This document shows positions 1-64,000 of a DNA stretch of 64,000 bases, in pieces. The notes below the pieces were generated by a model. That model was given only the letters and a program-made list of their open reading frames with translations. It was not told the origin of the DNA and did no database searches. The translations under genes and the position numbers were made by a program. This stretch comes from a virus, in IMG/VR virus record IMGVR_UViG_3300020810_001175, positions 1-64,000 of that record; one strand, written 5' to 3'. Each line of letters starts with the position of its first letter. The first letter of the stretch is position 1.

Positions 1-2
1 AT

Positions 3-2681
3 ATGAGAAATGCTACAGGCTTAAGAAACTGTACAGTTCAAGGACTATCAGGATCATTGGGATCAGCAAACAGTTATGGTACAAAACGTCCAACAGCAGG
101 TGCGTTTGTGTCATTGGATCCAGGTTATGGTCCAAATGATTACAGCGTATGGATTGCAAATCCAACAGTCGGCACAGCAACTTACACACCAACTGATGCT
201 ACATACGATCCAGCAACAGGTGTTACAGTATTAACAGTCGGCGCACACAACTGTCAACCAGGTGAATCTATCAGATTAACCACTGCAAGTTTAACATTCA
301 CTTGTGATTCAGATGGCAACGTGTCACAAATTGCTTATCCAAGAACAACAGATCCGGCGGCGGGTGCAGAGATCATGATTGATGCAGTCACTCCAACAAC
401 AATCACAATCAATGTTGGTGCAAGTCCAGGAGGACAACAATACGCACACACATTTGTGAGTGCTTTAGCAGATTCTGTACAACAGGAAACTGTGTGTAGA
501 ATTGGTGGTAGATCACCTTATATTCAAAACGTAACAACTTTTGGAACAGGTGCTGTAGGACAAAAAATTGACGGAGACTTACACGCAGGTGGTAATGACT
601 CTATGGTATCGAACGACTTTACACAGGTAATATCAGATGGTATTGGTGCTTGGATTACAAACTTAGGTAGAGCAGAACTTGTATCTGTGTTCTCATACTA
701 CGGACACATTGGATATCTAGCAGAAACAGGTGGAAAAATACGTGCTACAAACGGTAACTCATCTTATGGTGATTTTGGTTGTGTGGCAGAAGGTGTTGAT
801 CCGACGGAAGTTCCAGTTACTGGTACAGTTAACAATAGATCAACTGATGCAGTTGTAACCAGTGTATTCACTGATGGTGAACAAATTCTAGCATTAGAAT
901 ATGGCAACGCAGGTAGAGAATACTCAAACGCTACAATCACTATCACAGGTGATGGTTTCGGATTAAACGGAGTAGCGGCAACTTACAATACAGGTGGTGT
1001 TTACAAAATCAGATTGTTAGAAACTGTTGTAAATCCTACATCGAATTTAGGTGGTGCAGGATATGTTACAACAACAAACTCAGCACAAACAGGAACAACA
1101 ACTCAAATCACATTGGCGGCGGCTGATTCAGCGGCAAGTGGTGTGTATGTGGGTATGGCATTGTTTGTAACTGAAGGTAAAGGTGCTGGACAATATGGTT
1201 ACATTGATACATATTCTTCATCAAGCAAAATTGCTACAATTAAAAAATTCTCAGATGATTCTGCAGGTTGGGACACACTAGGTGGCAAAGCAGTTGAAAC
1301 AACTTTAGATTCAACTACCATCTACGAAATTACTCCAAGAGTTGTAATTGGTGCTCCACAAGGTGATGGTTCTACTGCGGCAAGGCAAGCAGTTGGAAGA
1401 GCAGTTGTTACAGGTGAACAAATTACATCAATTAAAATATTAGATTGTGGTGCTTCTTACACATCAGCACCAACAGTGACATTTGTAGATCCAAACAACA
1501 CAACAGATGCTCCAGTACAAGCATACATTGGCGATGGTGTGTTAGGTCAACCAACATTTGTGGCAAGAGGTCAAGATTATGTAACTGCTTCTGCGGCAAT
1601 CACAGAACAAGGTGTTCAAGCAACAGTATCAGCAATCACTAAAGCATCACCAGTAGTAGTAACAACTTCTGCCGCACACAACTTTAACACTCATGACAAA
1701 GTTAAATTTGATGGCATATTAGGTATGATAGAATTAAACACTGGTGTCTTTTATTATGTTAAAGTTCTAACAGTTGATACTTTTGAGTTATATGCTGATT
1801 ACGATTTAACAACTCCAATTGATTCTACAAACTACACCACATATCTAAGTGGTGGTACAGCAGAAACATTTGGTGGTTTTAGAGATGAATATCAATCAGG
1901 CAAATACATTGCTGTTGAAAATTTAACAGAAATTCCAAGAGCAGGTTCAAACATTGAGTTTGGTCATTTACCAGGACAATACTTTAAATTGGTTGCTGTT
2001 AATCAACAACTTGGAACACAAACTCCATTCACAGCATTGTTACAAGTTTCACCAGACATAAAAGTTTCGGAAGCACCTGATCACGGACAGTCAATTGAAA
2101 TGAGAATAAGATACTCACAAGTACGTTTAACAGGACACGACTTCTTAGATATCGGTACTGGTAACTTTGCAAATACAAACTATCCTGGATTACCATTAGT
2201 AAATCCAATTCCAGCAAATGAAACTGTTGAAGGCGGTGGAGGAAGAGTATTCTTTACATCAACTGACCAAGACGGTAACTTTAGAGTTGGTGACTTGTTC
2301 TCAGTAGAACAAGCAACTGGTATTGCATCATTGAATGCAGATGCATTTAATATTTCAGGACTACAAGAATTGCAGTTGGGTGATCTGGCATTAGGTGGAA
2401 CAAGTGCTTCTATTAATGAATTCTCAACTGATGGTACAATGGCGGCTAATTCGGATGCTATTGTTCCAACACAAAGAGCAATAAGAACTTACATCGCGTC
2501 ACAGATCGGTGGTGGTGCTAGTTCACTCAATGTTAACTTAATTACTGCTGGATTAGTGGTAATTACTGGTAACACAATAAGTACAAGTAACAATGTAGGA
2601 ATCAATTTCCAAAGCGTCACAAACTTCTCAAAAGGAGTTACTGGCGTACCGATTGCGATGAACTACTTAATACATAGTTAA
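3..2681 (+). CDS. Large virion structural protein (tail fibre/baseplate-associated); probably truncated at the window start
   Basis: Thr/Gly/Ser-rich beta-type composition; beta-helix-like segment (SPYIQNVTTFG...SMVSNDFTQV...GRAELVSVFSYY); FCCH-like module (ITKASPVVVTTSAAHNFNTHDKVKF); C-terminal GHDFLDIGTG...GGGRVFFTSTDQDGNFRVG as in T4-like aquatic phage structural proteins. Confidence 0.7.
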   Translation: MRNATGLRNCTVQGLSGSLGSANSYGTKRPTAGAFVSLDPGYGPNDYSVWIANPTVGTATYTPTDATYDPATGVTVLTVGAHNCQPGESIRLTTASLTFTCDSDGNVSQIAYPRTTDPAAGAEIMIDAVTPTTITINVGASPGGQQYAHTFVSALADSVQQETVCRIGGRSPYIQNVTTFGTGAVGQKIDGDLHAGGNDSMVSNDFTQVISDGIGAWITNLGRAELVSVFSYYGHIGYLAETGGKIRATNGNSSYGDFGCVAEGVDPTEVPVTGTVNNRSTDAVVTSVFTDGEQILALEYGNAGREYSNATITITGDGFGLNGVAATYNTGGVYKIRLLETVVNPTSNLGGAGYVTTTNSAQTGTTTQITLAAADSAASGVYVGMALFVTEGKGAGQYGYIDTYSSSSKIATIKKFSDDSAGWDTLGGKAVETTLDSTTIYEITPRVVIGAPQGDGSTAARQAVGRAVVTGEQITSIKILDCGASYTSAPTVTFVDPNNTTDAPVQAYIGDGVLGQPTFVARGQDYVTASAAITEQGVQATVSAITKASPVVVTTSAAHNFNTHDKVKFDGILGMIELNTGVFYYVKVLTVDTFELYADYDLTTPIDSTNYTTYLSGGTAETFGGFRDEYQSGKYIAVENLTEIPRAGSNIEFGHLPGQYFKLVAVNQQLGTQTPFTALLQVSPDIKVSEAPDHGQSIEMRIRYSQVRLTGHDFLDIGTGNFANTNYPGLPLVNPIPANETVEGGGGRVFFTSTDQDGNFRVGDLFSVEQATGIASLNADAFNISGLQELQLGDLALGGTSASINEFSTDGTMAANSDAIVPTQRAIRTYIASQIGGGASSLNVNLITAGLVVITGNTISTSNNVGINFQSVTNFSKGVTGVPIAMNYLIHS

Positions 2682-2694
2682 AGGAGAAGAAACA

Positions 2695-3015
2695 ATGGCT
2701 TCAGGAAGAATAGGAAAAGCAGATCTTTTAGCCGCGACAAATACGACTGTTTATACAACTCCTGTTGATACATTTACTGTGGCAACAGTGTCGTTTTGTA
2801 ACAGAGGTAACCAAGCCGTTACAGTAAGATTAGCGGTGGCAGACGCGGCAACTCCAGATAACTCAGAATATGTTGAATATGAAACAGAAATTTTGAGCCA
2901 TGGAGTTTTAGAAAGAACAGGTTTAGTACTGTCAGCAGGGCAATTATTGGTAGCACGTTCAAGTGGTGCTAACGTAAGTGCTGTTGTTAGCGGTATTGAA
3001 ACAAGTACAGCATAA
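2695..3015 (+). CDS. Small virion structural protein
   Basis: 106-aa ORF with AAGGAG RBS; TNTTVYT...VSFCNRG...VRLAV pattern typical of small fibre-associated proteins. Confidence 0.55.
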   Translation: MASGRIGKADLLAATNTTVYTTPVDTFTVATVSFCNRGNQAVTVRLAVADAATPDNSEYVEYETEILSHGVLERTGLVLSAGQLLVARSSGANVSAVVSGIETSTA

Positions 3016-3030
3016 TTTTAAGGTAAATTA

Positions 3031-3038
3031 TATAAATA
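3031..3038 (+). promoter_or_regulatory. T4-type late promoter (TATAAATA)
   Basis: Exact T4 gp55 late consensus in the intergenic gap before 3063. Confidence 0.7.
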
Positions 3039-3062
3039 GTACTAATAAAGGAAACATAGACA

Positions 3063-4404: not shown

Positions 4405-5421
4405 ATGGCAAGTTTAACTACATTATTACAATCCAAGTATGATTTTGCAGTAGGCAATGAAACAAACCTTGAAAAAGGTAGAATTTATCAATATTATCCA
4501 GGAACATCACGAGGTACAAACTTTAGATGTCACGTGTGTTTCGTAGCACCATCAGACGGTACAGCCACTATTGAAATTTGGGGAGCGGCAGGTTCAGGTG
4601 CAGAGATGTGCTGTTGCGGTGGAGGAATTCCAGGTAACCCAGGCGGTTATGCACGTAAAACAATTACTATGGCATCAGGCTGTTTCATTTGTGGAGTAGT
4701 AGGTGTGTCATGTGGTAACGGTGATGATTTATGTTTTAGAGGTTGTTCAGAACCAACTCAAGTGTGTTGGTTTGGTAACGGCGGTGGAGACGGATGTATC
4801 TGTGCTCAAGGTGGTATAGGTGGAAGAAGTTGGTGTTCAACTGGTTCTTCAATCTACTGCTGTGCAGTAGCATCAGGTTTCTGTTACACACAAGGTGGTT
4901 CAACTTATTGTGGGATCATTTGTAACTTTATGGATTCAGCAAGTTGTCCACAGTTTTGTGCTTATGCATATGGTGGAGATGTGAACTGTTACGGTGGATT
5001 TAGTTGTCATTACTTTAGAGGATGTCAACCTAACTGTAACTGTAGACAAGTTCCAATTATTAAATTCCCTCCAGGAATGATTTCAACGCTGGGTGGTGAG
5101 GTACATTACACAATGGACTCAGACTCAGGTAGATCTCAATGGTCTGGAATGGGCGGATGGATGAATGCATCTCATGGATTTAACCTAGCAACACGTAACC
5201 CTACAACAGGTGGACCATACACGGCTTGTTGGGAAGGTAACAGAAGTTGCGGTTGTTATGAACAACAAGGATGTAACACTTTCTTTCCAGCAGGAATTCC
5301 AGGACAAGGTCCAACACCATGTGATGGCGTAAGAGATCACGCACACAGAGGTGGATATGGTTTAATTAGAATCAAGTTTGTATCACCAACAGATGAATAT
5401 GAACTGGTGGCGCAACCGTAG
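4405..5421 (+). CDS. Cys-rich, Gly-rich protein, paralogue 2
   Basis: Aligns by eye with 3438: MASL, NLEKGRIY, WGAAGSGAEMCCC, DDLCFRGCSE, CGCY, PCDGVRDH..RGG.G.IRIKFV. Confidence 0.6.
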   Translation: MASLTTLLQSKYDFAVGNETNLEKGRIYQYYPGTSRGTNFRCHVCFVAPSDGTATIEIWGAAGSGAEMCCCGGGIPGNPGGYARKTITMASGCFICGVVGVSCGNGDDLCFRGCSEPTQVCWFGNGGGDGCICAQGGIGGRSWCSTGSSIYCCAVASGFCYTQGGSTYCGIICNFMDSASCPQFCAYAYGGDVNCYGGFSCHYFRGCQPNCNCRQVPIIKFPPGMISTLGGEVHYTMDSDSGRSQWSGMGGWMNASHGFNLATRNPTTGGPYTACWEGNRSCGCYEQQGCNTFFPAGIPGQGPTPCDGVRDHAHRGGYGLIRIKFVSPTDEYELVAQP

Positions 5422-5438: not shown

Positions 5439-6413
5439 ATGGCAAGTTTAAAAGGATTATTAACTACTAGAAACCCAGCAGAGATGATTGAAAACAATCT
5501 CGAAACTGGATATATCTATTCGTACACACCTGGTACTAACTACTCTGTATTTTGTAATGGTATTTGTTGGACGGCTAATCAAGCAGGTACAGCCACTATA
5601 GAAGTTTGGGGTGCGGGTGGTTCAGGTGCTAGAATGTGTTGTTGTGGTGATGGTTTACCAGGCAATGCAGGTGCTTATGTTAAAAAAACTATCACAGTAG
5701 AAGCAGATGACACAATAACTGGTCAAACAGGAAACAGTTGTTATTCTCACGATTTATGTTTTTCAGGATGTTCACAATCCTCAGGAATATGTTACATCAC
5801 AGCCAACAACGGTAATGGATGTGTATGTTCAAGAGGTGGATTTGGTGGGAAATCTATGTGTACAACAGGATCTTCTTTATTCTGTTGTTACAGAGCTCAA
5901 GGTTTCTGTTACACAAAATGTAACAATGACAACTGCGGATTAGTATGTAACGTTTGTAACGGACACTGGTGTGCATTAGCATACGGTGGAGATACAAATA
6001 AAAACTGTTGCGGACAATTTTCATGTGCTAGTTTCTTTGGATGCTGTCCACATTGTAAATGTCGGTTCCAACAACACGTGGCTATGCCAGCAGGACTATT
6101 TGCTGAAGAAGGAGCATTAATCACTTTCCAAAAAGAATCTGATGGAACTCCAATGTCACAATGGTCAGGTAACCAATTATTTCAATGGTATGCGGCACTT
6201 AACTTGGCAACTAAAACACCAAGACAAGGTAACCCAGATGCACACTGTTGGAGATCAACAAGATCTTGCGGATGTTATGAGATGCAAGGTTGTAACAACT
6301 ATCTGCCTGTAGGAGCAGGAGGTTTATCTCCTAACCCATGTCCAGATGTTAGAGATCATGGAATTAGAGGTGGATTTGGTGGAATAAGAATCAAGTTTGT
6401 TCCGTCAAGTTAA
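5439..6413 (+). CDS. Cys-rich, Gly-rich protein, paralogue 3
   Basis: Same motif order (MASL, NLETG, WGAGGSGARMCCC, CGCY, PCPDVRDHGIRGGFGGIRIKFV); TAAATA at 5428-5433. Confidence 0.6.
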   Translation: MASLKGLLTTRNPAEMIENNLETGYIYSYTPGTNYSVFCNGICWTANQAGTATIEVWGAGGSGARMCCCGDGLPGNAGAYVKKTITVEADDTITGQTGNSCYSHDLCFSGCSQSSGICYITANNGNGCVCSRGGFGGKSMCTTGSSLFCCYRAQGFCYTKCNNDNCGLVCNVCNGHWCALAYGGDTNKNCCGQFSCASFFGCCPHCKCRFQQHVAMPAGLFAEEGALITFQKESDGTPMSQWSGNQLFQWYAALNLATKTPRQGNPDAHCWRSTRSCGCYEMQGCNNYLPVGAGGLSPNPCPDVRDHGIRGGFGGIRIKFVPSS

Positions 6414-7156: not shown

Positions 7157-7825
7157 ATGAGCAACAGAGAAATATTCAATAGGTATCCATTCGATATGGA
7201 AATACCTGACCAACCTTATATCGACAACTTCAGCAAAGGATTAACACACCCTGCCATATACACGGGGGTAAGATTTTTAAAATTTAGAATTGAAAATGGT
7301 ACAGGACTTCTTAAAGAAGAAGTTGCTAATGGACATACTTTGGAAGAAATGAATTCAGTAATTGTTTACCCAGAAGAAAATCACGAAATTCATATCATAG
7401 ATGCCAAATTAAATCCTTGGGAAGCGGCATATTTGACCAATGCATATTCGCATGATCCCGTTCCTGTATATGAAGAAGATTTAGGCACTGTGGACAGTGA
7501 AGGTAATCCAGAAATTTGGAATTATAATTGGGGGCACGTACTTAATCAAATTTATTACAGTCATGAGTTAAGATATGTAAACGGTGAATATGTGAAACCG
7601 CCATTTAGATTACATCAACACACTCAAGAAGCATTCATAAAAAGTTTACTCGATCATCAAGAAATGGTTGAACGAGAGTTAAGTAGACCAGAAGGTGTTT
7701 ATACAGTTGACCAAAAAGCAAATTTACAAAAATATAAAGAAGACTTAGATGTTATTGAAACCAAGTATGTTGGAATACATCACTGGAAAATACCTTTTCC
7801 GGCATTACCATTAATCAAACCTTAA
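7157..7825 (+). CDS. Putative tail fibre assembly/chaperone-like protein, paralogue 2
   Basis: Shares IPDQPY.D.FS.G, EAA, Y.EDLGT.D..GN.E.W, L.QIY, FR.H and HWKI.FP with 6453. Confidence 0.4.
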   Translation: MSNREIFNRYPFDMEIPDQPYIDNFSKGLTHPAIYTGVRFLKFRIENGTGLLKEEVANGHTLEEMNSVIVYPEENHEIHIIDAKLNPWEAAYLTNAYSHDPVPVYEEDLGTVDSEGNPEIWNYNWGHVLNQIYYSHELRYVNGEYVKPPFRLHQHTQEAFIKSLLDHQEMVERELSRPEGVYTVDQKANLQKYKEDLDVIETKYVGIHHWKIPFPALPLIKP

Positions 7826-8829: not shown

Positions 8830-10659
8830 ATGGACGATATAGAAAAATACAACAAAACAGGTTATATTGCGGCAATTGCCAGAGGACACAATGCAGGTGT
8901 ATGTTTACTAAAAGACGGAGAAGTTGTGTTTTCAATTGAAGAAGAAAGATTATCAAGAAGAAAATACGATGGCGGTCCATATGCTTCTATGGTTGAAATA
9001 TTAAAATACACCGACAAAATAGATTATCTAGTTGTTGCTCATACACAAAGTTTAAATGATAGATCAACAGGTAGAGTAGATTATTCAGGCGATGATGTTT
9101 ATACAGGTATTGCACGAAAACTTGGTCTAATTGATAGACATATCTATGAACAACCTCATCCACAAGTGATTGACTTATCACATATCCATCACAAACTTCA
9201 TGCCGCGTGTGCTTTTTATAGATCAGGATTTGACAAAGCAGTTGCAGTGATTGTGGACGGAGCAGGAACATTTATTCCAATAAAAAATAGTGTATCAGGT
9301 GAAACAACTGTGTTTGAAGTTGAAAGTATATTCAGTTGTGACTATCCAAACGACATATATGCTTTATACAAACATTATGGAACAGGCGAAGCCAGTCCAG
9401 GAGCATTTTACTCAGACTTTGCTTCAGATTCAATTGGTGAACCAGGTAAGACACACGAAGCATTATTCACTGACAGAGCAGGTATTGTAAAAGTTTATGA
9501 AGCAGTAACTCAATATTGCGGATTCACTGCCATTGAAGCAGGCAAAACTATGGGATTATTTCCTTATGGAAAACCCAATGATGTTATTCCACCATTATTC
9601 AAAAAAGAAGGTTACTATTCTTTATCGAATAGAAACTTAATTGTGCCAACATATCCAAACGCATCGATAGTTAACAGTCAACTGTATCCATTTATAGATG
9701 AAAATCCTGCTTCTGATCAAAAAGATGATTGGACACGTATGCAGAATAGAAGAGATTTAGCATATGCAGTACAAAAAGAAACACAAAAAGAATGTTTAGA
9801 TTTAATTTACAAAGCAGTACAGATGAGTGGTTGTAAGAATGTTGTATTTTCTGGAGGATATGGATTGAATTGTGTAGCCAACTATTATTATTTAGAAACT
9901 TTACGCAAAGATGGTATTAATTTTTATGCTGAGCCAGTATCAAACGATGCAGGTACGGCAATGGGAGCGGCAATGTTGTTCTATTACAGTCTAACACAGA
10001 CTAAAGAAAAGAAAGTTGCTGAACCTACACTGTACTTAGGTCCAAAAAGAACATACACAGATGAACAAATCAAACAGATTTGTGATAGACCTGGTGTAGA
10101 AGTAGTGGATGCTGACAATAAATCTGTTGTTGAGTTAATTGCAAATAAAAATATTGTGTCAATTTTTCAAGGACAATCAGAAAACGGTCCTAGAGCATTA
10201 GGTAACAGATCAATATTATATGATCCAAGAGATCCGGATGGTAAAGATCACGTTAATAGAGTAAAACATAGAGAATATTTCAGACCATTTGCTGGAACAA
10301 TACTACATGAATACGTGCATGAGTGGTTTGACTTGCGTGGAATGGAAGAAACTCCTCACATGATGTATGCTGTAAATTGTCAACCTGGCATAGAAGAAAA
10401 AATACCTAGTATAATACACGTGGATGGCACTTGCAGAATACAATCTGTAAAAAGAGAACAAAATCCACTGTACTATGATTTAATCAAAGAGTTTCATGCT
10501 CAAACAGAATGTCCAATCATATTCAATACCTCATTTAATTTAGGCGGAGAACCATTGGTTGAAACACTGGAAGATGCTGTAAGAACACTTCAGCACAGTG
10601 AAATTGAATACTTGTTCTTACCAGAGTATAAAAAATTAATAAAGGTAAAAAATGTCTAA
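8830..10659 (+). CDS. Carbamoyltransferase, NodU/CmcH/TobZ family
   Basis: EEERLSRRK, HHKLHAA, DGAG, EAGKTMGL, GGYGLNCVAN, NDAGTAMG, GPRALGNRS, KHREYFRPFA, HVDGTCRIQ, NTSFN. Confidence 0.92.
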   Translation: MDDIEKYNKTGYIAAIARGHNAGVCLLKDGEVVFSIEEERLSRRKYDGGPYASMVEILKYTDKIDYLVVAHTQSLNDRSTGRVDYSGDDVYTGIARKLGLIDRHIYEQPHPQVIDLSHIHHKLHAACAFYRSGFDKAVAVIVDGAGTFIPIKNSVSGETTVFEVESIFSCDYPNDIYALYKHYGTGEASPGAFYSDFASDSIGEPGKTHEALFTDRAGIVKVYEAVTQYCGFTAIEAGKTMGLFPYGKPNDVIPPLFKKEGYYSLSNRNLIVPTYPNASIVNSQLYPFIDENPASDQKDDWTRMQNRRDLAYAVQKETQKECLDLIYKAVQMSGCKNVVFSGGYGLNCVANYYYLETLRKDGINFYAEPVSNDAGTAMGAAMLFYYSLTQTKEKKVAEPTLYLGPKRTYTDEQIKQICDRPGVEVVDADNKSVVELIANKNIVSIFQGQSENGPRALGNRSILYDPRDPDGKDHVNRVKHREYFRPFAGTILHEYVHEWFDLRGMEETPHMMYAVNCQPGIEEKIPSIIHVDGTCRIQSVKREQNPLYYDLIKEFHAQTECPIIFNTSFNLGGEPLVETLEDAVRTLQHSEIEYLFLPEYKKLIKVKNV

Positions 10660-11635
10660 AAAAACAGCAATATTTTTAAATGGTGGTGCAGGTAGAATGG
10701 TTAGTTCTATACCAGCAGTAGAGAAATACCTAGAAGAAAATCCAGATAAAGATCCTATCCTAGTGTGTGAAGGTGGAACAGATGCTTTCAAAGGTCATCC
10801 TAAATTTCATTTCAGAGCATATGATCATTGGCACAAAAATTTGTTTCAAGATATGCTAAAAGATAGAGATTTAATTTCACCAGAACCATACAGAATATGG
10901 GAATACTACAATCAAAAGTGTAGTCTTGCTCAAGCATATGACATTGCTATCAATAATAAAGGAATTAGAGATTTACCTAAGCCAACCATACGATTAAGTA
11001 AAGAAGAGTTATTAATGGCAAGACAAATGATCACGGAAGTTAAGGAAAAGACAGGTAAAGATAAAATTATTGTATTTCAACCATTTGGCAGAGGTGCTCA
11101 CCCGGATCAAATCAGCGAAAAACAGAAGGAAGAAGGCAAACAACCTGACATCACTGATTCAACAGGAAGAAGTATAGAGTTAAAAAACATTTGGAACATT
11201 GTTAGAAAACTTGCTAAAAATTATGGCGTTATGGTGATGAGTGAATTTCCATTAGATTTTCAAAAACATATGTCTACTCCTATTGCTACTCCTATGAATA
11301 TACACCTAAGAATATGGATGGCTGTTATAAAACAAGCCAATCATTTTGTTGGTTGTGATTCTGTAGGTCAACACGTTGCTTATGCATTTGACAAAACAGC
11401 AACAGTGTTGGTTGGATCAACATACCCTATAAACACATCATTTCCAGATGCAGAAAATATAGACATTATTGATCTTGGCAAGGACGAAAGAGTGTATTCT
11501 CCCATCAGAATCACATCAGATGAAATGAGTGATAGACTGAATGAAGGCATTATGGCAATGGATGAACAAGCAGAAGAGCGTGTGATTAAATCTGTACAAA
11601 GAATGCTTAAACAGAGCAAAAATACCCAAAAATAA
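10652..11635 (+). CDS. GT-B glycosyltransferase, GT9-like; paralogue of 7874
   Basis: NGGAGRMVSSIPA; SPEPYR..EYYNQKC..AQAYDI.INNKGIRDLPK shared with 7874; FVGCDSVGQHVA. Confidence 0.65.
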   Translation: MSKKTAIFLNGGAGRMVSSIPAVEKYLEENPDKDPILVCEGGTDAFKGHPKFHFRAYDHWHKNLFQDMLKDRDLISPEPYRIWEYYNQKCSLAQAYDIAINNKGIRDLPKPTIRLSKEELLMARQMITEVKEKTGKDKIIVFQPFGRGAHPDQISEKQKEEGKQPDITDSTGRSIELKNIWNIVRKLAKNYGVMVMSEFPLDFQKHMSTPIATPMNIHLRIWMAVIKQANHFVGCDSVGQHVAYAFDKTATVLVGSTYPINTSFPDAENIDIIDLGKDERVYSPIRITSDEMSDRLNEGIMAMDEQAEERVIKSVQRMLKQSKNTQK

Positions 11636-14026: not shown

Positions 14027-17000
14027 ATGGCAAAAAAACGTATTAATACATACAAATTTACACCAGGAATTCCACAGAGTGGCAATCTTTTTCCAAATGC
14101 TTGGGCTCAGATCAACGCCAACTATGAGTGGTTGAAAGATGAATCCAGTGCATATATAGATGCTAAAATTGTTGAAGACACAGCGGCAAATTTATATCCT
14201 AACACTTCAACAAGATATCTTAACAACAAAGAATATGTCAAAGCAGAAGTGGCGGCGTGGGTAGCAGTACAAGTGGCAGGCAACATTGCACCATTTGCCG
14301 GTTACACAAAAACAGCAACAGAAATTAAAAACGATGTGGGCAACGTTATTGAAGCGGCATACCTAGACACAAGATACGGCGGAAATGAAAATATAAGAAA
14401 ACAATCACAAACATATTACATTGATGGAGTTTTACAATTAGCGGCGGCAGGTGAACCTGAAATCGCTTACATGGAAAAAGCAAGAGATATTTTCGATCTT
14501 TATATTTTCCCTGGTTTAGCATACAGTTCAATCAACACAGATGGATTAAGTCAAAACACATCAGGAACAAATGCAGAAGTAAATGGTAGAACAGGTTATC
14601 TAGCAAATATCAATGTTGTAATAAATGTTGTTGATAACGGTATTTTACAATTACCTGCTTTAGTAAGTTCTGCATATGTGTTTGCAAATTTTACTTACGA
14701 CAGTGCTCTTTGTCAAAGAGACATGGGGTACAACATCACTGGTATATTAACAGATTTAAGATATGGTGGTAATCAACAATCAAGATACAATGCTTCAACA
14801 TATTGGGTTGGCACAGTATCAGTATTAGACGGTGATAGACAACCAGAATTAGCAGTAAAAAACGAAATCAGAAACATTATAAACAATTATGTGATACCTG
14901 GACAAGCATTTAGTTCAAGACAGTCACCAGTTGTTACACAACAAACAATTTTACCTACTCCAGGTGAAGCAGGAGCCACTGCAAGAGTCACTACATTAGT
15001 TGGAATTATTACAGATGTAATTACAAATGGATTAGACAATTTACCTACTCAAGTAAACAACGGAATTTCAAGTGTAAAAATTCCTGAAAGAGTTGAACAG
15101 AATGAAATATTACTGATTACAAACACAACCACAAACACAGTACTATACACATTCAATGATCCTTCAAAAGGAGCAACAGTAACTTATCAAAGAGAATTTG
15201 CCGAAGACACATCAAACCCAACAGCGTTTGTTGATCCAGATTTTCCTAAAGCATATCATGGCAATGACACCATTACAACAATATTTTTAAATGCAGACAC
15301 ATCTGCAGATAGTAGTACAGACAACATTCAGATTTTTGTTGAAGAAGATGAGATAAGAACAAGACCATATGATTTTGGAACAGATGCAATTGAAAGATTA
15401 AGAGTAGCTCAACCAGAATCAATGCTTGATGCTGACTTTGAGTACGGATTACAGCCTACAAAATGGAGTGCGATTGCTACACAAAGAGGTTACCCATCGA
15501 TCTATGAAGTACCAGGTACAGATTTTGATATAGCAAGTGTGACATCAGATGCATCAGCAGGCACACAAGGTATAGGTTCATCGTTGATCACTGTGACAAC
15601 AATTGGACCACACGGTTTTGAAGCAGGACAACCTTTCACAATAACTGGATTTGACAATGCAGTACAAGGTGCAAGTAGAGCCGCAGGATCATTTGTGGTA
15701 AACACAGTGCCTGACACAAGATCATTTACATATTACGCAAAAGCAAAAGTTGGTCAAGCAAATCCAACAACAATTTCTACAACTTCCACTCAATTGAGAG
15801 AAGGTGACTTCTACACAGGAGCATCAATTGGCTTCCCTTCATTCAGTGTTGCTTCAAACGGTTCATCAGGAAACTTTGTTACCAGTTTAGGAGTGTTAAG
15901 TGGTTCAACCATACTTCCATACACAGGTGTACAACCAGAATTAGGAGCACCGTTAACAGGAACAGGAATTCAACAAGGTACACAAATCACAGCAGTGAAT
16001 GGTTCAGGTGGCGCATTGGCGGCTCCAACTGTTACAGGTGATTACTCAGCAGGTGCAACAGAAATTACAGTGGCAGATTCTTCAGGTATTATTCAAAACT
16101 CTGTGATTGATAGAGGAGATGGATTTGCTGTAACAATTATCAACGTGGCAGGAAACAGTTTAACATTGAGTGCTCCTTTGAATCAAGCATTAATAGGAGA
16201 TGTAACACAGTACACAAATTTACCAGGATTAAATGTTGCTCCACAAGGACAGTTAGCAAGATTTGATATTTTTAGAGTTGGCGGTGCATACTCAGTAAGT
16301 TTAGTAACAAACGGACAAGTTGGTACAGGTCAAGATTACGAAGTAGGTGATGCTATTGTTGTTTCAGGAACAGAATTAGGCGGAGCAACTCCGGCCAATG
16401 ATGCAACAATCACTGTTGAATCAGTCAGCACAGGTGGTGAAATTACTGCCGCATCTATTTCAGGTACAGCATTTACAGGAACAGGTACAGCATCAGCAGT
16501 CACTCCGGTATTCCAAGGAGGTGTTGGTACAGGTGCTCAGATAAATTTAACAAAAAACAATCAAACCTATTCAGTAGCATTAAACAATCCACAGTACACT
16601 AATAAGAGTGTAGATGTATTCCCAGGCGCTGTTGGTGTAGGAGCAGTGTTTGATGTCACAGTTGATGCAGGAGTATATACTGCTGTAACAATTAATAATG
16701 CAGGTGGATCATATATTCAAAATGACGTAATAAGAATTAATGGATCGGTGTTTGGCGGAAATAATGACAATAATTTAGACATAAGAGTTACTGGTGTTGG
16801 CGGATCAGGAGAAATTCAAACAATATCTTGGGCTGGCACGGCGCCTGCTCAGACGGCAACATACAATGCCGCAACATACACAACAGCAAGTGCTGGCGGT
16901 CTAACAGCAGTATTCAACGTAACAAGAACAGGAACAACTTATTCAGCAACAGTATCAGGTATAGGTAATGGATATTCAGCAACTGACACTTTAACTTTTG

Positions 17001-20000
17001 CTGGTACAGTGTTAGGTGGAGCATCACCGGCTAACGATATGACATTAACTGTGGATTCAGTTGATGGCAACGGTGGTATTTTAACTTTTACTGTTACAGG
17101 AACATCTGTTGACACAAACAGTTATCCAGGTTTAAATTCAGGCACAAATGTTGGCGGACAAAATGCCACATTTGATGTTACAATATCAGGCACAAGTTAC
17201 ACAGTGACTTTGAATAATCCAGGTGATGATTATGGAGTTGGTCAACAATTAAAGATTTTAGGAACAAGTTTAGGTGGACAATCACCTACAAATGATGTAA
17301 CAATCACAGTCAGCACAGTTTCAGGAGCAGGAGCAAGTGCTATCGCAACTGTTTCATCAACAGGTACAGCGGCACTGAATGGTACTTCAGGATACAAAGT
17401 AGGAGATTTATTTTATATCAATGGTACAGATGCCGGCGGAGCAACACCTACCAATGATGCTTATGTTAACGTTTCAAGTGTTAATGTAGATGGCGGAATT
17501 ACAGGATTGTCTGTTTCAGGCACAGGTACAGATGCAAATGTTGATTATACCAGCGTTGCTTATACTACAAGTGGTACAGGAACAGGCGCTGTTGTAGACA
17601 TTAACAGAACAGGAACAACATATTCAGCAACATTCACAAACAACGGATCAAACTTTGCGGCTTTAGACACAATCACAATACTTGGTACAGCAGTTGGCGG
17701 TTTATCACCGACTAATGATGTAACAATCACTATCGATACTGTTACAGGTGGAGCGATTGCTACTTACACTGTTTCAGGTACAGCAGTAAATTCTGTAACA
17801 TACACAAATATAAACAAAAGTTTAAGAGTTGGTTCTGGATTAACCGTTGATGTAACACTCAATGCAGGTTCGTACACTCTAGCAATTAACACTGCTGGTT
17901 CAAATTTCAATGCTGATCAAGAATTTAAAATACTTGGTACACAGGTATTTGGATCTTCTCCGACCAACGATTTAACTTTCACAATTACATCAGTTGATGC
18001 TGTGTCAACAGGTGTTGTTACTGCAATTAGTGCCGCAACAGGTACAGCAAACACAGGAACAGGAAATGCATTGAATGTTGAAGGAACAAACAGAACACCA
18101 ATAGGAGTTGGAGCTCAGTTCAGTGTCACAAGAACTAACGACACTGATTCATCAACTTCTTACACAGAATGTACAGTAGTTCAATCAGGAAGTAATTATT
18201 CTGTAGGAGATAGAATTAAAATATCAGGAACAAGTTTAGGTGGACAAACACCAGCCAATGATGTTATCGTAAGGGTTCAAGCAATTAATACAGGCGGTGG
18301 AGTGACACAAAATACACACAGTGGAGTAGCAATTGGTGGTACAGGATTATCAGTTTACTCATCAGTTACAATTTCAGATCCAACTTCAACTTCAATCAAT
18401 CAAGGTGCTACAATCAGTTACTCAGCATTGGCAACAATTAGAGTAACATTTACAACACCACACGGATTGGTTCCAGGAAATGCTTTCTTGGTTGTTATTC
18501 AATCTGATGATGGTGCAAACAATCACATATTGGCTTCAGGTCCATTCTTGGCAACATCAATTCCGAGTTCTACAAGTTTAACATACCAAGTGAGATCACC
18601 TGGTGCAATCACTGATTCAGGTTGGCAAGGTGCAGTTTATGGCAGACCAGATTCATTCTTCGTACACAGACCATTTGATGGTGGTGTTCAATTAGGTACA
18701 GGTGGACCGGCACACGGTGCACAGGCAATACGTCAATCTAAAAAATATATCAGATATCAATCAGGTAAAGGTTGTATGTACACAACTGGTGCTCTATTTG
18801 CTCCATCATACGACATATTAAACCTAACAGCAGATGGTATTTCAGCAGGATCAACAATTACTGTGACAACAGATGATGTGGATCACAATTTACAAGTTGG
18901 TGCTCAAATTAGATTGGTAGGTATAGCAACATCAGGCTATGATGGAACGTATACAATAACATCAGTTCTAAATGAAAGATCATTCACAGTAATTGCTAAA
19001 ATTACATTGGGTGGTACAACTCCTGAATTTACAGATCAACCACAAGTTTCATTATACAAATGGAATGGTGCTACTGTGAGATCAGGTATATTTGATGATC
19101 AAAACGGAATTTTCTGGGAATATGATGGACAAACTACGAATGCTGTACAAAGAACTGCCACAAGACAATTGGCTGGTACAGTTGCAGTTACTCCAAATTC
19201 AAACACAGTGACAGGTACAGGTACAAGATTTAGAGAACAAATCAAAGCAGGTGACAGAGTGGTTATCAGAGGTATGACTCACGTTGTTTCAGGTGTTGAT
19301 AACAACACAACAGCATATATTACTCCAGATTACAGAGGAGTAAATGCATCATCAGGTGTGAAAATGTGTGCTGTGGTTGACAAAAAAGCAAAACAATCAG
19401 AATTCAACAGAGATAGATTAGATGGTACAGGACCAAGCGGATACAATTGGGACGTATCTAAAATGCAGATGATCGGAATTCAATTTTCATGGTACGGGGC
19501 TGGATTTATTGACTGGATGTGTAGAGGACAAAAAGGTGAATTTATATTTTCTCACAGAATGAGAAACTCAAACGTTAACACAGAAGCGTTTATGAGAACA
19601 GGTAACCAACCAGTACGTTACGAAGTTACAAATGAAGGACCAAACGGTAAATTATTAGAAAATATTGATGCTAGTGCAACATCTATCACATTAGAAGATG
19701 CTAGTTTCTTCCCAACAACAGGTGGTACAGTTTATATTGATAACGAAATTATTACATTCACAGGTATCACAAACGATACATTAACAGGTTGTACAAGAGC
19801 GGCACAGTTGACAAACTTTGCGGCAGGTGCCACAAGATCATATTCAGCAGGTGCGGCGGCTCCACACTTTAGAAACACAGGAGTTGTATTAATATCTAAC
19901 ACAGCGTCTCCAATCATATCACACTGGGGATCAGCGTACTTAACAGATGGTAATTTTGATGAAGACCGAGGATACTTATTCAGTTACTCAGGATCAGGAT

Positions 20001-21064
20001 TAGCATTATCAACTATCAAACAGACTGTGTTCCTAATGAGATTGGCTCCATCAGTTTCCAATGCCTTAATTGGAGATTTAGGAGATAGAGATCTATTAAA
20101 CAGAGCTCAGTTGCTACTGGATGGTATTGAAATTACCACAGAACCAGTTACAGCAGGACAAACACAAGGTCAGTTGGTTATTCAGGGAGTAATAAATCCG
20201 CAGAACTATCCTATTGATCCAGCAGACATAGGTTGGACAGGTCTACAAACAACTGCCCAAGGTGGTCAGCCAAGTTTTGCTCAAATTGCTCCGGGTGGAT
20301 CTGTTAACTGGAACGGTGGTGCTTCAATCACAACTCAAACATCAGATACTCAAGCACTGATGACATCAACTTCTAATAACTGGTTCAATGTTGGAGGAAA
20401 CAGAAATTACACTTACTTCTTAGAAGCAGATTGGGAAGGCAAAGGACACGTGGTAGGTATGTCAGTTACTTCAGGTCAATTCCCAGCAAACACAGTGGTC
20501 ACACAGATTCAAGATAACGGATCTTACTACTTTGTAAGATTCTCAAATAGACACACAGGAATATCGGCAGGACAAGCAGTTACTTTTTCTTATGGTGGTG
20601 ATCTAACAGGAACAAACTACTTGTTCTTTGATCCTGCATCATGGGAAGCCGCAGGTGCTACAAGTGGTACAGAAGTAGACACTTCAGTTTCTACAGAATT
20701 TCCACCAGGCACAACTGTACAACAGGTGTATGCTAAAACTGTGTTTGGTTCAACAGAATATTACAGAGTTGAATTTAACCAAACGTTTAGTGGAACAATT
20801 TCGGCGGCAAGTTCGATTACATTCAAATTTGGTAATCCACCATATGCACAACCAGGTGAAACAATATTCTCATTCATTGCCCAACCAGGTGAAAGAGCAA
20901 CATTGGCTCTAGACAAAATCAAAGTGTTAACAAACACTACACTGGGCGGTAGAGGTACATTCCCGAACGGTCCGGACGTATTAGCAATCAACGTATTCAG
21001 AACTGCTGGTACAGGAGATGTTTCAGGTACGGTAACACTTCGTTGGTCAGAAGCACAAGCGTAA
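14027..21064 (+). CDS. Giant virion structural/tail fibre protein with tandem beta-rich repeats
   Basis: 2345 aa, Gly/Thr/Ser-rich; about 8 repeats with GG.(T/S)P.ND core; N-terminal D.RYGGN repeats; lectin-like RYQSGKG...IQFSWYGAG region. Confidence 0.75.
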   Translation: MAKKRINTYKFTPGIPQSGNLFPNAWAQINANYEWLKDESSAYIDAKIVEDTAANLYPNTSTRYLNNKEYVKAEVAAWVAVQVAGNIAPFAGYTKTATEIKNDVGNVIEAAYLDTRYGGNENIRKQSQTYYIDGVLQLAAAGEPEIAYMEKARDIFDLYIFPGLAYSSINTDGLSQNTSGTNAEVNGRTGYLANINVVINVVDNGILQLPALVSSAYVFANFTYDSALCQRDMGYNITGILTDLRYGGNQQSRYNASTYWVGTVSVLDGDRQPELAVKNEIRNIINNYVIPGQAFSSRQSPVVTQQTILPTPGEAGATARVTTLVGIITDVITNGLDNLPTQVNNGISSVKIPERVEQNEILLITNTTTNTVLYTFNDPSKGATVTYQREFAEDTSNPTAFVDPDFPKAYHGNDTITTIFLNADTSADSSTDNIQIFVEEDEIRTRPYDFGTDAIERLRVAQPESMLDADFEYGLQPTKWSAIATQRGYPSIYEVPGTDFDIASVTSDASAGTQGIGSSLITVTTIGPHGFEAGQPFTITGFDNAVQGASRAAGSFVVNTVPDTRSFTYYAKAKVGQANPTTISTTSTQLREGDFYTGASIGFPSFSVASNGSSGNFVTSLGVLSGSTILPYTGVQPELGAPLTGTGIQQGTQITAVNGSGGALAAPTVTGDYSAGATEITVADSSGIIQNSVIDRGDGFAVTIINVAGNSLTLSAPLNQALIGDVTQYTNLPGLNVAPQGQLARFDIFRVGGAYSVSLVTNGQVGTGQDYEVGDAIVVSGTELGGATPANDATITVESVSTGGEITAASISGTAFTGTGTASAVTPVFQGGVGTGAQINLTKNNQTYSVALNNPQYTNKSVDVFPGAVGVGAVFDVTVDAGVYTAVTINNAGGSYIQNDVIRINGSVFGGNNDNNLDIRVTGVGGSGEIQTISWAGTAPAQTATYNAATYTTASAGGLTAVFNVTRTGTTYSATVSGIGNGYSATDTLTFAGTVLGGASPANDMTLTVDSVDGNGGILTFTVTGTSVDTNSYPGLNSGTNVGGQNATFDVTISGTSYTVTLNNPGDDYGVGQQLKILGTSLGGQSPTNDVTITVSTVSGAGASAIATVSSTGTAALNGTSGYKVGDLFYINGTDAGGATPTNDAYVNVSSVNVDGGITGLSVSGTGTDANVDYTSVAYTTSGTGTGAVVDINRTGTTYSATFTNNGSNFAALDTITILGTAVGGLSPTNDVTITIDTVTGGAIATYTVSGTAVNSVTYTNINKSLRVGSGLTVDVTLNAGSYTLAINTAGSNFNADQEFKILGTQVFGSSPTNDLTFTITSVDAVSTGVVTAISAATGTANTGTGNALNVEGTNRTPIGVGAQFSVTRTNDTDSSTSYTECTVVQSGSNYSVGDRIKISGTSLGGQTPANDVIVRVQAINTGGGVTQNTHSGVAIGGTGLSVYSSVTISDPTSTSINQGATISYSALATIRVTFTTPHGLVPGNAFLVVIQSDDGANNHILASGPFLATSIPSSTSLTYQVRSPGAITDSGWQGAVYGRPDSFFVHRPFDGGVQLGTGGPAHGAQAIRQSKKYIRYQSGKGCMYTTGALFAPSYDILNLTADGISAGSTITVTTDDVDHNLQVGAQIRLVGIATSGYDGTYTITSVLNERSFTVIAKITLGGTTPEFTDQPQVSLYKWNGATVRSGIFDDQNGIFWEYDGQTTNAVQRTATRQLAGTVAVTPNSNTVTGTGTRFREQIKAGDRVVIRGMTHVVSGVDNNTTAYITPDYRGVNASSGVKMCAVVDKKAKQSEFNRDRLDGTGPSGYNWDVSKMQMIGIQFSWYGAGFIDWMCRGQKGEFIFSHRMRNSNVNTEAFMRTGNQPVRYEVTNEGPNGKLLENIDASATSITLEDASFFPTTGGTVYIDNEIITFTGITNDTLTGCTRAAQLTNFAAGATRSYSAGAAAPHFRNTGVVLISNTASPIISHWGSAYLTDGNFDEDRGYLFSYSGSGLALSTIKQTVFLMRLAPSVSNALIGDLGDRDLLNRAQLLLDGIEITTEPVTAGQTQGQLVIQGVINPQNYPIDPADIGWTGLQTTAQGGQPSFAQIAPGGSVNWNGGASITTQTSDTQALMTSTSNNWFNVGGNRNYTYFLEADWEGKGHVVGMSVTSGQFPANTVVTQIQDNGSYYFVRFSNRHTGISAGQAVTFSYGGDLTGTNYLFFDPASWEAAGATSGTEVDTSVSTEFPPGTTVQQVYAKTVFGSTEYYRVEFNQTFSGTISAASSITFKFGNPPYAQPGETIFSFIAQPGERATLALDKIKVLTNTTLGGRGTFPNGPDVLAINVFRTAGTGDVSGTVTLRWSEAQA

Positions 21065-51580: not shown

Positions 51581-52242
51581 AAGCATTCATAATAACATTG
51601 ATGAAAGACGTTTGGAGTTTGTCATATGCTGAACGTTGTTTACAAAGTATACAAGAAACAGAAAGCGATTTGGAAGCCACGCTGTTCGAGGCTACTACTC
51701 CAGAAACAATTTTTCCAGTTGCTTGGACTTGGCCTACAGGCAAAAAAATAACTTGTCCTAAAACAAATTTGTTACTAAAACCATATAAAACTTACGATAA
51801 TAATAAAAGAATAGCCGCGGCACAAAGTCATTTTAGACTATGGCAAATGTGTGTGTCAATGAATGAACCTATTATGATATTGGAACATGATGCACTCTTT
51901 ACACGTAAATTTACAGAACCAAAACTATTTGACAATGTGGGAGCATACAGCATTAACGATCCCAGAGGATCCACATTTAAAGCAGAGGACTATCATAATG
52001 GTTTACAAGAAGGCTTTAACAATGTTCCGTGGGTAGCATCTAAAAACATACCACAAGGATTACCAGGACACTCTGCATATGTAATAACACCTTGGGCGGC
52101 TAAAGATATAATTGAAAAACAAGACAGCATTGGTTGGTGGCCCAACGATGCAATTATGTGCAGTCAATTGTGTGGATGGTTGTTTGTGTACAAGCCATAT
52201 TTTACCAAAACACAAGGCATCAAATCTACCACATCATTGTAA
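51577..52242 (+). CDS. Glycosyltransferase family 25-like
   Basis: AFIITL, FEATTP, AAAQSHFRLWQMC, ILEHDA, PGHSAYVITP.AAK, PND. Confidence 0.75.
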   Translation: MKAFIITLMKDVWSLSYAERCLQSIQETESDLEATLFEATTPETIFPVAWTWPTGKKITCPKTNLLLKPYKTYDNNKRIAAAQSHFRLWQMCVSMNEPIMILEHDALFTRKFTEPKLFDNVGAYSINDPRGSTFKAEDYHNGLQEGFNNVPWVASKNIPQGLPGHSAYVITPWAAKDIIEKQDSIGWWPNDAIMCSQLCGWLFVYKPYFTKTQGIKSTTSL

Positions 52243-60999: not shown

Positions 61000-61001
61000 T
61001 A

Positions 61002-62247: not shown

Positions 62248-62927
62248 TAGAAAAGTTATACCCTTGCAAATATTGTAATGCTAAATTCGCCAAAGAAAAG
62301 ACATTATCAGTACATATGTGTGAGCAAAAAAGAAGATATCTACAGAAAGATGAACGTAGAGTACAATTAGGATTTCAAACTTTTGTAAGATTCTATGAAC
62401 TGTGTCAAAAAGTTACAACACCTAAAACTTATGAAGAGTTTTGTAAATCTCCATACTATACAGCATTTGTAAAATTTGGAAGTTTTATCAGTAATGTTAA
62501 ACCATTGTATCCAAACAAGTACATAGATTACGTTGTAACATCTGGAGTTAAACTTGATCACTGGTGTAGAGAAGAACTGTATCAAAAATATGCTATTGAT
62601 TTGATTTTAAGAGAACGAGTTGAAACAGCCATGGAAAGATCAATCAAAACAATGATGGATTGGGGTGATGAAAAACAAGCACCATGGAGTGATTATTTTA
62701 GATATGCTAGTTTGAATAGAGCAGTTGTAGATATAAAAGATGGTAAAATTTCTCCTTGGCTTATATTGAATTGTAAAACTGGAAAAGAAATGATGAAAAG
62801 ATTTAACGATGAACAATTACAAATGGTATATGCTATAATGGATCCCAGTCATTGGACATTAAGATTTAAAAGACTACCCGCAGATATTGAAATGGTTAAA
62901 GAAGTAATCAAGGAGGCAAATTTATAA
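62244..62927 (+). CDS. Hypothetical protein with N-terminal Zn finger
   Basis: YPCKYCNAKFAKEKTLSVHMC (C2H-C zinc finger); GKISPW motif. Confidence 0.55.
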   Translation: MIEKLYPCKYCNAKFAKEKTLSVHMCEQKRRYLQKDERRVQLGFQTFVRFYELCQKVTTPKTYEEFCKSPYYTAFVKFGSFISNVKPLYPNKYIDYVVTSGVKLDHWCREELYQKYAIDLILRERVETAMERSIKTMMDWGDEKQAPWSDYFRYASLNRAVVDIKDGKISPWLILNCKTGKEMMKRFNDEQLQMVYAIMDPSHWTLRFKRLPADIEMVKEVIKEANL

Positions 62928-63493
62928 TGTTCGATATTGATATAGACTTTGCTGATAGAAATGTGTTGTTAGAAAAACTTAAACACAGAATAGCAAAATT
63001 AGACACAGAAAAAAAACATAACACAGGTGTTTACTTCACAGAAATTCCACACGACCCAGCAACAAATATGGCAACAATAGATTACGAAACTGCTGAAGAA
63101 AGAAACTATTTTAAAATAGATTGTCTCAACGTAAGCATATACAAAGATGTAAAGGATGAGGATCATTTGAATCAATTGATGAATAAGGAACCTGTATGGG
63201 AATTGTTAGAAGCAAAAGAATTCAGCGATCAGGTATTTCATTTGAACGGTCATAATGAAATATTGAAAAGATTAAAACCGAAAAATATAGAACAACTGGC
63301 GGCTGTATTAGCAATCATCAGACCAAGCAAAAGATATCTACTAAACAAAGATTGGGATTCTATTATGAAGGAAGTATGGGTCAAGCCCACTGATGGATAT
63401 TATTTTAAAAAATCACACGCAACGTCATATGCTGTGGCAGTTGTGATACACATGAATTTAATCTGCGAACAATTACAAAACAATGACAAGTAA
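62927..63493 (+). CDS. Minimal DNA polymerase III alpha (DnaE)-like catalytic core
   Basis: FDIDIDF, KHNTGVY, FKIDCL, LAIIRP and YYFKKSHATSY match the DnaE motifs PDxDxDF, KHAGGV, KxDFLGL, ALYRPG and YGFNKSH in order within 188 aa. Confidence 0.8.
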   Translation: MFDIDIDFADRNVLLEKLKHRIAKLDTEKKHNTGVYFTEIPHDPATNMATIDYETAEERNYFKIDCLNVSIYKDVKDEDHLNQLMNKEPVWELLEAKEFSDQVFHLNGHNEILKRLKPKNIEQLAAVLAIIRPSKRYLLNKDWDSIMKEVWVKPTDGYYFKKSHATSYAVAVVIHMNLICEQLQNNDK

Positions 63494-63737
63494 AATAAGA
63501 AGAAGTTTAGTTAAAACATTAACCTGGAGAATAGTTGCTACTACCGATACATTTATAATTGCTTGGTTGATAACAGGAGAATGGACATGGGCCAGTGCTA
63601 TTGCTGGAGTCGAAGTTTTAACAAAAATGTTTTTGTATTATGGTCATGAGAGAGTGTGGAATAAAATTGCTTGGGCTAAAGAATACAAAGAACCACACAC
63701 TACTATATTCCCTTATAAAGAAGATAAACGTTGGTAA
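63483..63737 (+). CDS. DUF2061-like small membrane protein
   Basis: RSLVKTLTWRIVAT.DT......ITG....A..IAG.E...K..LYY.HER.W. Confidence 0.8.
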   Translation: MTSKIRRSLVKTLTWRIVATTDTFIIAWLITGEWTWASAIAGVEVLTKMFLYYGHERVWNKIAWAKEYKEPHTTIFPYKEDKRW

Positions 63738-64000
63738 TTATTTAGGTTTTCTAACCAGTTGAACCGACTTCCTTTTGCTACGCTTCATAGCAAGATTGCC
63801 GAGACTGGTGACTGGACCAATCTTCACTTTCACATCTTTTGTATTCATCATCATTAAAACACTACGGAATTTTTGTAATTCTTTACGTAAAAAGATGCCA
63901 ATTGGTACCATTCTATTGGATTCCCACCACCATGTTTTACATAATTCCATGAAAGTTTCTCTCGAATTGGTGTGAATTTCTTCATATATGTACATGGACG
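63738..64000 (-). CDS. Hypothetical protein, probably truncated at the window end
   Basis: Open frame reaching the window edge; WWWESNR..PI.IFL motif. Confidence 0.55.
   Translation of the reverse strand, partial: SMYIYEEIHTNSRETFMELCKTWWWESNRMVPIGIFLRKELQKFRSVLMMMNTKDVKVKIGPVTSLGNLAMKRSKRKSVQLVRKPK

Follow-up and report, generated by a model that had tools for sequence, protein, structure and literature searches.

Purging of GCWGC and other palindromic words, and a neighbour rule for the surviving sites, in an uncultured marine jumbo myovirus

Introduction

Restriction-site avoidance has been documented for about one tenth of virulent double-stranded (ds) DNA phages (Rusinov 2018, PMC6286503). 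Here we describe an extreme instance from the IMG/VR virus record IMGVR_UViG_3300020810_001175, a single viral contig of 84,279 bp, whose first 64,000 bp (henceforth the window) entirely lack the word GCWGC (in IUPAC notation), alongside the depletion of further palindromic words and a rule concerning the bases next to the sites that survive. Two kinds of known systems have as their recognition word the very word purged here, namely the Type IIP enzymes TseI and ApeKI (G^CWGC) and the BbvI-type Type IIS enzymes, whose site is GCAGC. TseI is described as cutting at G^CWGC (PMC3643589), and GCWGC-specific methylation is known from uncultured aquatic bacteria (PMC6329791). In comparison to these systems, no enzyme of the TseI, ApeKI or BbvI type was found in the contig or linked to a host, and counts on double-stranded DNA cannot distinguish the palindromic (TseI/ApeKI) from the Type IIS (BbvI) reading.

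A second group of described systems that bears on this locus involves modified guanines. In phage CAjan, preQ0-deazaguanine is placed at GA and GGC, while sites offering only GC, GT or GGT contexts stay cuttable (PMC7544227). Phage iggy has been described as carrying a 7-deazaguanine modification at GA only. For the Pseudomonas jumbo phage PA5oct, which is the closest cultured phage to the virus studied here (52.7% amino-acid identity in the large terminase subunit, TerL), a preprint suggests that G is modified 'in a GA and/or GG motif' (PMC12191111).

The present contig resembles the phages of the above survey in that orthodox Type II sites are eliminated, or nearly so, without protein change in a large dsDNA phage of non-temperate appearance. 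Unlike in that survey, the loss concerns a set of words, distributed as a mosaic within a clade, for which we found no counterpart in the literature searched, and the abstract of the survey (PMC6286503) does not contain the flank rule. Relative to documented cases of avoidance, the cognate host enzymes are here read from the loss of sites alone. Searches of open-access literature text returned no account of phages avoiding GCWGC, nor of avoidance that depends on flanking bases; within the reach of these searches, neither the multi-motif fingerprint nor the neighbour rule is in print. Taken by itself, the absence of GCWGC is a known strategy in an extreme but otherwise ordinary form.

Results

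Absence of GCWGC and the recoding of alanine pairs

GCWGC is found nowhere in the window on either strand, compared to an expectation of 49.2±6.8 occurrences (100 dinucleotide-preserving shuffles, none of which fell below about 30). The initial annotation, made from the letters alone, had noticed no copy of the word even though the base composition predicts dozens of sites, and counting bears this out. The pattern extends to the entire contig, where 0 sites stand against Markov expectations of 69.8 (dinucleotide), 80.7 (trinucleotide) and 85.8 (maximal-order), and against 85.7±5.1 (minimum 66) in 500 shuffles of synonymous codons within genes. The stretch and representative examples of its recoding are as follows:

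1-64000, both strands: stretch free of GCWGC by site counts, extending to the contig end at 84,279
1116-1136, plus strand: recoded Ala-Ala pairs, GCG GCG GCT GAT TCA GCG GCA (AAADSAA), in frame with the open reading frame (ORF) at 3-2681
14441-14449, plus strand: Ala-Ala-Ala written as GCG GCG GCA
51814-51822, plus strand: Ala-Ala-Ala written as GCC GCG GCA, within the glycosylation island

The purge is most visible in the alanine pairs. All 88 Ala-Ala dipeptides in the 93 called ORFs of the contig have GCG (66) or GCC (22) as the first codon, despite the fact that GCA and GCT account for 1296 of the 1514 alanine codons that precede a residue other than alanine. Considering the window by itself, the 77 pairs begin with GCG in 61 cases and with GCC in 16. 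The rule for alanine pairs had likewise been put forward in the initial annotation, and each of the eight places that it quoted does carry an Ala-Ala with GCG or GCC in the first position. At 88, the number of Ala-Ala dipeptides is close to the 97.3 expected from the amino acid composition, and hence the purge was achieved without a cost at the protein level. The other two reading frames are equally devoid of the word, with 0 sites against 5.2 expected in frame 2 (NGC followed by AGC or TGC) and 0 sites in frame 3 (NNG CWG CNN). Conversely, GCSGC is over-represented in the contig (99 against 32.5 expected from codon shuffles), which we read as a by-product of the purge. A companion remark, that Cys-Cys is never encoded as TGC-TGC, is correct for all 15 pairs; it carries no weight, as only about 0.5 such cases would be expected among them.

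Depletion of further palindromic words

When every palindromic IUPAC word of 4-7 bases was counted and codon shuffles were then applied, three further purges emerged in the contig that the initial annotation had overlooked: AGCT (10 sites against 231.5±11.1 expected) and RCATGY (0 against 39.8±4.5), both by codon-preserving shuffles, and GCGC (20 against 58). Partial depletion is seen for CGCG (13 against 31 expected), GGCC (33 against 76) and TGCA (263 against 400); neither GATC (321 against 282) nor CCWGG (96 against 109) is avoided in the contig. We take AGCT, RCATGY and GCGC to be the sites of AluI, NspI and HhaI, respectively. RCATGY responds in the way of a genuinely degenerate site, in that its counts drop abruptly: observed and expected values are 58/56, 107/116 and 0/39.7 for cores with 0, 1 and 2 purine flanks. 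With several independent motifs purged, a set of different enzymes fits better than a single agent.

A neighbour rule for the surviving sites

The sites that escaped the purge are not a random remainder. All 10 AGCT and all 20 GCGC survivors in the contig have a G at position -1 or a C at position +1. Four of the ten AGCT sites are in fact GAGCTC, flanked on both sides. The seven AGCT and 15 GCGC sites of the window are located thus (starting positions after the first):

5893-5898; also 18111, 20103 and 55601: AGCT within GAGCTC, flanked on both sides
15406-15409; also 27841 and 57102: AGCT with G before or C after
241-244; also 3631, 3967, 5410, 13900, 16011, 16626, 16841, 17586, 23933, 23969, 31074, 44450, 49478 and 56937: GCGC, each with G at -1 or C at +1

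The response is graded by the number of flanks. For AGCT the observed and expected counts in codon shuffles are 0/169.5, 6/57.5 and 4/5.1 with 0, 1 and 2 flanks, and for GCGC they are 0/25.9 (25.6 in a second shuffle set), 16/28.7 and 4/3.1. The contig itself has no GCWGC survivors with which the rule could be compared. In a near-complete relative, the 335,231-bp contig C57 introduced below, all 35 surviving GCWGC sites are flanked (442 expected) and the unflanked form HGCWGCD is absent (0 against 299 expected). When these survivors are oriented by GCAGC, the flank lies on its two sides in 24 versus 14 instances.

We re-examined the rule in loci that had been chosen by criteria other than the rule itself. 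Flanked and unflanked GCGC sites number 233 and 4 in the 63 sources free of GCWGC, as opposed to 77 and 63 in the 11 GCWGC-bearing sources; for AGCT the corresponding figures are 46 and 0 in 34 AGCT-poor sources and 857 and 2251 elsewhere. No comparable rescue by a 5' G is seen for cores that start with C or T (TGCA, CATG and CGCG). The unrelated pelagiphage HTVC008M shows an exemption of the same kind for a different word: all 83 of its GATC sites follow a G or precede a C, and GGATC half-sites number 111 against 100 expected. Hence, the cause of the rule also operates outside this clade. In the Synechococcus phage Sf-FS3, 11 of the 12 surviving CCGG sites are preceded by G or followed by C, and five are full GCCGGC.

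Placement of the contig and the mosaic distribution of purges

Two genes bear on the placement of the contig:

38221-39804, plus strand: large terminase gene of the T4 type (Pfam Terminase_6N and Terminase_6C), used as the probe for placement and relatives
29621-32851, plus strand: tail sheath of 1076 aa, of the jumbo-myovirus type (Pfam)

The contig is about one quarter of the genome of an uncultured coastal-marine jumbo myovirus that is a distant relative of PA5oct; CheckV puts it at about 24% of the genome, the remaining 76% lying outside the contig. Near-identical DNA is present in 20 sequencing runs from 17 studies, with salt marsh, seawater and estuary labels, though 13 of the 20 runs may belong to the source campaign. 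This recurrence, together with the repetition of the pattern in independent IMG/VR contigs, indicates that the sequence is not an assembly artefact of a single sample.

At least 595 IMG/VR contigs encode a related terminase. We scored 87 sources for avoidance: the contig itself, 79 IMG/VR loci (L002-L080), six loci from metagenome-assembled genomes (MAGs; L081, L084-L088) and the whole of C57 (G001:C57). The last of these comes from a Red Sea MAG labelled 'Neomarinimicrobiota', has a TerL 76% identical to that of our contig, and is syntenic with it across C57 250-325 kb, where 51 of the 93 contig ORFs find a match; it served as our near-complete relative. Its MAG, the GTDB representative RS350 (Candidatus Neomarinimicrobiota), contains both the 335-kb C57 (L089-L105) and a 153-kb jumbo-phage contig, C77 (L083), with identical terminase regions, and these look like mis-binned viral DNA.

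GCWGC is absent from 63 of the 87 sources, which together amount to 857,882 bp, and 11 sources carry it at a normal or raised frequency. The states were mapped on a quick maximum-likelihood tree of TerL (85 rows, 67 of them different) rooted on PA5oct, with the following outcome:

HGCWGCD: avoiders 62 of 71 scorable rows, fewest state changes 6
HAGCTD: avoiders 35 of 80 scorable rows, fewest state changes 5
RCATGY: avoiders 34 of 74 scorable rows, fewest state changes 7
HGCGCD: avoiders 45 of 51 scorable rows, fewest state changes 4
TGCA: avoiders 8 of 81 scorable rows, fewest state changes 3
HGGCCD: avoiders 25 of 48 scorable rows, fewest state changes 6

Avoidance of AGCT and avoidance of RCATGY are combined in all four possible ways (18, 11, 16 and 26 rows). 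In one clade, L033-L035, the avoidance of AGCT, GCGC, GCWGC and RCATGY is gone altogether; L033 and L034 are scorable for all four words and L035 for GCWGC, AGCT and RCATGY only. In the whole PA5oct genome, for its part, the ratios of observed to expected sites are 1.02 for AGCT, 1.41 for GCGC and 1.27 for GCWGC, so that it avoids none of them. Taken together, the mosaic on the tree and the state of PA5oct show that the purges are lineage-specific states rather than a family-wide compositional habit. For the co-variation of GCWGC and GCGC avoidance the raw table reads 54/6/2/0, with just 3-4 independent pairs on the tree.

A single lineage (L045, L047 and L048, with identical TerL) completely lacks CTAG, with 0 sites against 27, 32 and 39 expected.

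Comparison with phages of candidate hosts

We compared the fingerprint with those of cultured phages from abundant marine bacteria. In the Synechococcus phage S-SSM7 (L134-L145) GCWGC stands at 2.05 times expectation and CCGG is absent (0 against 135 expected); in Sf-FS3 (L146-L156) the corresponding values are 1.67 times and 12 against 191. The 6-mers ATGCAT, CAATTG or TTCGAA are also purged in these two phages. HTVC008M, a myovirus of SAR11 (Pelagibacter; L158-L165), has GCWGC at 1.78 times expectation and purges GATC (83 against 405), GANTC, TCGA (2 against 121) and CGCG (1 against 68). Accordingly, SAR11 HTCC1062 and Synechococcus WH8102/WH8109 find no support as host models, since the avoidance fingerprints of the cultured phages do not match. 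The suggestion in the initial annotation that the motif could help identify the host has not been realized: in PA5oct, S-SSM7, Sf-FS3 and HTVC008M alike, the word stands at 1.3 to 2 times its expectation. We likewise rejected the MAG bins as evidence on the host. Eight TerL loci on GTDB contigs fall in Neomarinimicrobiota, Polynucleobacter, Crocinitomicaceae, an archaeon and Spirochaetaceae, and we read them as mis-binned phage contigs.

The only host-related lead comes from a gene of the fibre-tip cassette:

8830-10659, plus strand: carbamoyltransferase (Carbam_trans_N and Carbam_trans_C)

Its product is 62% identical in amino acids to those of Sf-FS3 and S-SSM7, and cyanophages make up 117 of the 142 matching phage records. 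These similarities point to gene exchange with cyanophages, despite the differing restriction fingerprints.

Discussion

What might have purged the words

What has to be accounted for is a purge that is absolute for GCWGC, synonymous, directed at several motifs and mosaic among the relatives. Our preferred reading, to which we give a probability of about 0.75, is that the phage avoids Type II restriction sites in response to nuclease pressure from host restriction-modification (R-M) enzymes; both the attribution to host R-M enzymes and the enzyme families we infer from the words that were lost. The purge proceeds through the choice of synonymous codons and codon pairs, such as Ala-Ala invariably written as GCS-GCN, with the proteins unaltered. 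Each unprotected site would be a target of a host endonuclease when the DNA enters the cell, genomes with fewer sites would escape more often, and a long association with enzyme-bearing hosts would drive the sites to zero. The initial annotation had proposed strong selection either by a host restriction system or by a phage-encoded nuclease that cuts host DNA. As regards selection, pressure against a site of the TseI type explains far better than any other reading a loss that is absolute, synonymous, spread over multiple palindromes and mosaic; host restriction as its agent is deduced from that loss.

Several observations weigh against host restriction. GCWGC avoidance is nearly clade-wide (the 63 of 87 sources noted above), and this fits a conserved phage-encoded agent as well as it does a conserved host enzyme. 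Cultured phages of Synechococcus and SAR11, the candidate host groups of highest abundance, differ in fingerprint, and the binned relatives are scattered over five unrelated taxa and provide no host signal. Only 24% of the genome is in hand, and Pfam is insensitive to restriction endonucleases. Further, many of the 80 IMG/VR loci are near-duplicates, as seen from the 67 different sequences among the 85 TerL rows, so that locus counts overstate independence; expectations are small in loci of 5-20 kb, and the thresholds for calling avoidance are our own choice.

One alternative is that a methylase-free endonuclease of the phage itself cuts GCWGC in the DNA of hosts or rivals, the phage being safe by the absence of sites. 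It would agree with GCWGC being the most conserved of the purges, and the 76% of the genome outside the contig could house such a gene. However, the contig gives it no support. We scanned 89 ORFs with Pfam, comprising 88 of the 93 called ORFs and one extra ORF (of the called ORFs, the set excludes the 2345-aa protein at 14027-21064 and four paralogues, located at 4405-5421, 5439-6413, 7157-7825 and 10652-11635), and no nuclease or DNA methylase family was detected in these 89, the statement for 41 of them applying to the matches listed (25 families). The phage-encoded GCWGC nuclease of the initial annotation thus goes without backing in these 84 kb, which represent 24% of the genome. Moreover, at least four to six words are purged and assort independently among the relatives, implying that several phage nucleases would be needed, and the joint relaxation of all purges in L033 and L034 is more simply seen as a switch to another host or a shift in overall protection. 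We therefore regard a nuclease of the phage as an unlikely cause. Still less can be said for a mutational origin, in which methylated cytosines of GCWGC would decay by deamination with no selection on cutting. Both m4C and m5C methylation of GCWGC have been reported in nature, but the depletion exceeds 80-fold here and reaches 0 of 299 for HGCWGCD in the 335-kb relative, which is far beyond what mutation bias would produce. The replacements are, furthermore, from W to S at the middle position of the word (GCA or GCT to GCG or GCC), at the third codon position, and not from C to T, and the count of Ala-Ala dipeptides is unchanged. We find this origin hardly credible.

Why flanked sites might be spared

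By analogy with the proposal made for PA5oct, the neighbour rule would fit a putative context-specific modification of guanine. As in CAjan, the rescuing G precedes either A (GAGCT) or GC (GGCGC and GGCWGC), which are the CAjan motifs, although here they are known as a footprint in the sequence alone. In terms of genes, C57 encodes a FolE-like protein (PF01227, 1.4e-37), a QueD-like protein (PF01242, 1e-11; phrog_2389, 1e-38) and a weakly QueC-like PP-loop protein (3e-6), and in PA5oct two PTPS genes adjoin the FolE homologue. Palindromes that contain GA (GATC, TCGA, GANTC and TCNGA) are purged in no lineage among 88 sources.

Tentatively, and at somewhat less than even odds, we take these observations to support two layers of anti-restriction. 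In the first, modification of G:C pairs at GA and GG(C) steps would shield every site that contains or directly abuts a modified G-purine step. In the second, selection would erase only the words that cannot be so shielded, namely AGCT, GCGC, GCWGC, CATG flanked by R and Y, TGCA and CGCG.

Other features differ from a modification of the CAjan type. No TGT/DpdA homologue (PF01702) matched in the contig, C57 or PA5oct, at a Pfam sensitivity that could miss distant forms of DpdA, and no clear QueE or QueC was detected in the contig or C57. The 84-kb contig has none of FolE, QueD/PTPS, QueE or QueC; its sole radical SAM protein has a SPASM domain and is located in the sugar island. None of the radical SAM proteins of C57 resembles QueE, and for PA5oct the preprint's QueE assignment (PMC12191111) was not recovered at the Pfam level. 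Unlike the GGC protection of CAjan, GGCC, which includes GGC, is still depleted here, unless this is a HaeI-type WGGCCW effect; and contrary to a G-purine shield, the lineage of L045, L047 and L048 lacks CTAG even before a purine. A simple rule of in-site protection by G followed by a purine fits RCATGY and RCGCGY and fails for GGCC and for the CTAG-free lineage, and NspI-type and HaeI-type specificities account equally well for RCATGY and WGGCCW. Given this failure of the in-site rule, we limit the claim to the flank exemption of AGCT, GCGC and, in the relatives, GCWGC.

The region of C57 at 150-180 kb has at least six radical SAM genes, of the B12-binding, twitch-domain and SPASM types, along with genes for ATP-grasp, desaturase-like and QueC-like PP-loop proteins.

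The exemption might instead reflect the enzymes themselves, with extended specificities such as HAGCTD and HGCGCD, and no property of the phage DNA. Type II enzymes with degenerate outer positions do exist, RCATGY acts in this very contig as a degenerate site with its sharp step, and the search with PF01702 found no G-modifying transglycosylase in the contig, C57 or PA5oct. Against this, the same unusual exemption would have to be shared by enzymes for three different cores, AGCT, GCGC and (in C57) GCWGC, and it holds across lineages with different sets of purges. The graded response to the number of flanks resembles protection of half-sites, cores beginning with C or T are not rescued by a G, and the unrelated HTVC008M shows a like exemption of GATC, with G flanks at 83 of 83 sites. 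On balance we hold such extended specificities to be possible, though less likely than not.

Irrespective of how the flanked sites are spared, the lineage-specific fingerprint of purges (GCWGC, AGCT, RCATGY and GCGC) constitutes a host-side signature for an abundant clade of uncultured marine jumbo phages, which could be compared with metagenomic methylomes of the same waters. The neighbour rule, in turn, may expose modified guanines and their context from sequence alone. If the two-layer scheme is true, the missing words would be a read-out of the restriction repertoire of uncultured hosts, and the rule obeyed by the survivors a read-out of the modification motif of the phage; the GATC exemption of HTVC008M would then make such shields widespread in marine myoviruses, and patterns of purging could offer an inexpensive way to screen uncultured viruses for modified DNA.

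Other genes of the contig

The contig further encodes a large virion protein, an island of sugar-tailoring genes, a primase and a DnaB-type helicase:

14027-21064: virion protein of 2345 aa

No tRNA genes were found in the 64-kb window, and a search of phage records with the Cys-rich fibre-tip protein gave no match. Beyond the window, the contig encodes on the minus strand a hemC (porphobilinogen deaminase) gene at 75109-75969 (L129:11109-11969; PF01379, 3e-59), for which phage records provide distant matches only, at about 32-34% amino-acid identity. At lower contig coordinates, the minus-strand segment 70096-74044 (L129:6096-10044) includes three ORFs with no Pfam match, and Pfam detected no amidinotransferase in it; its recognizable members are a class III aminotransferase and a 2OG-Fe(II) oxygenase, all arranged in one co-oriented block.

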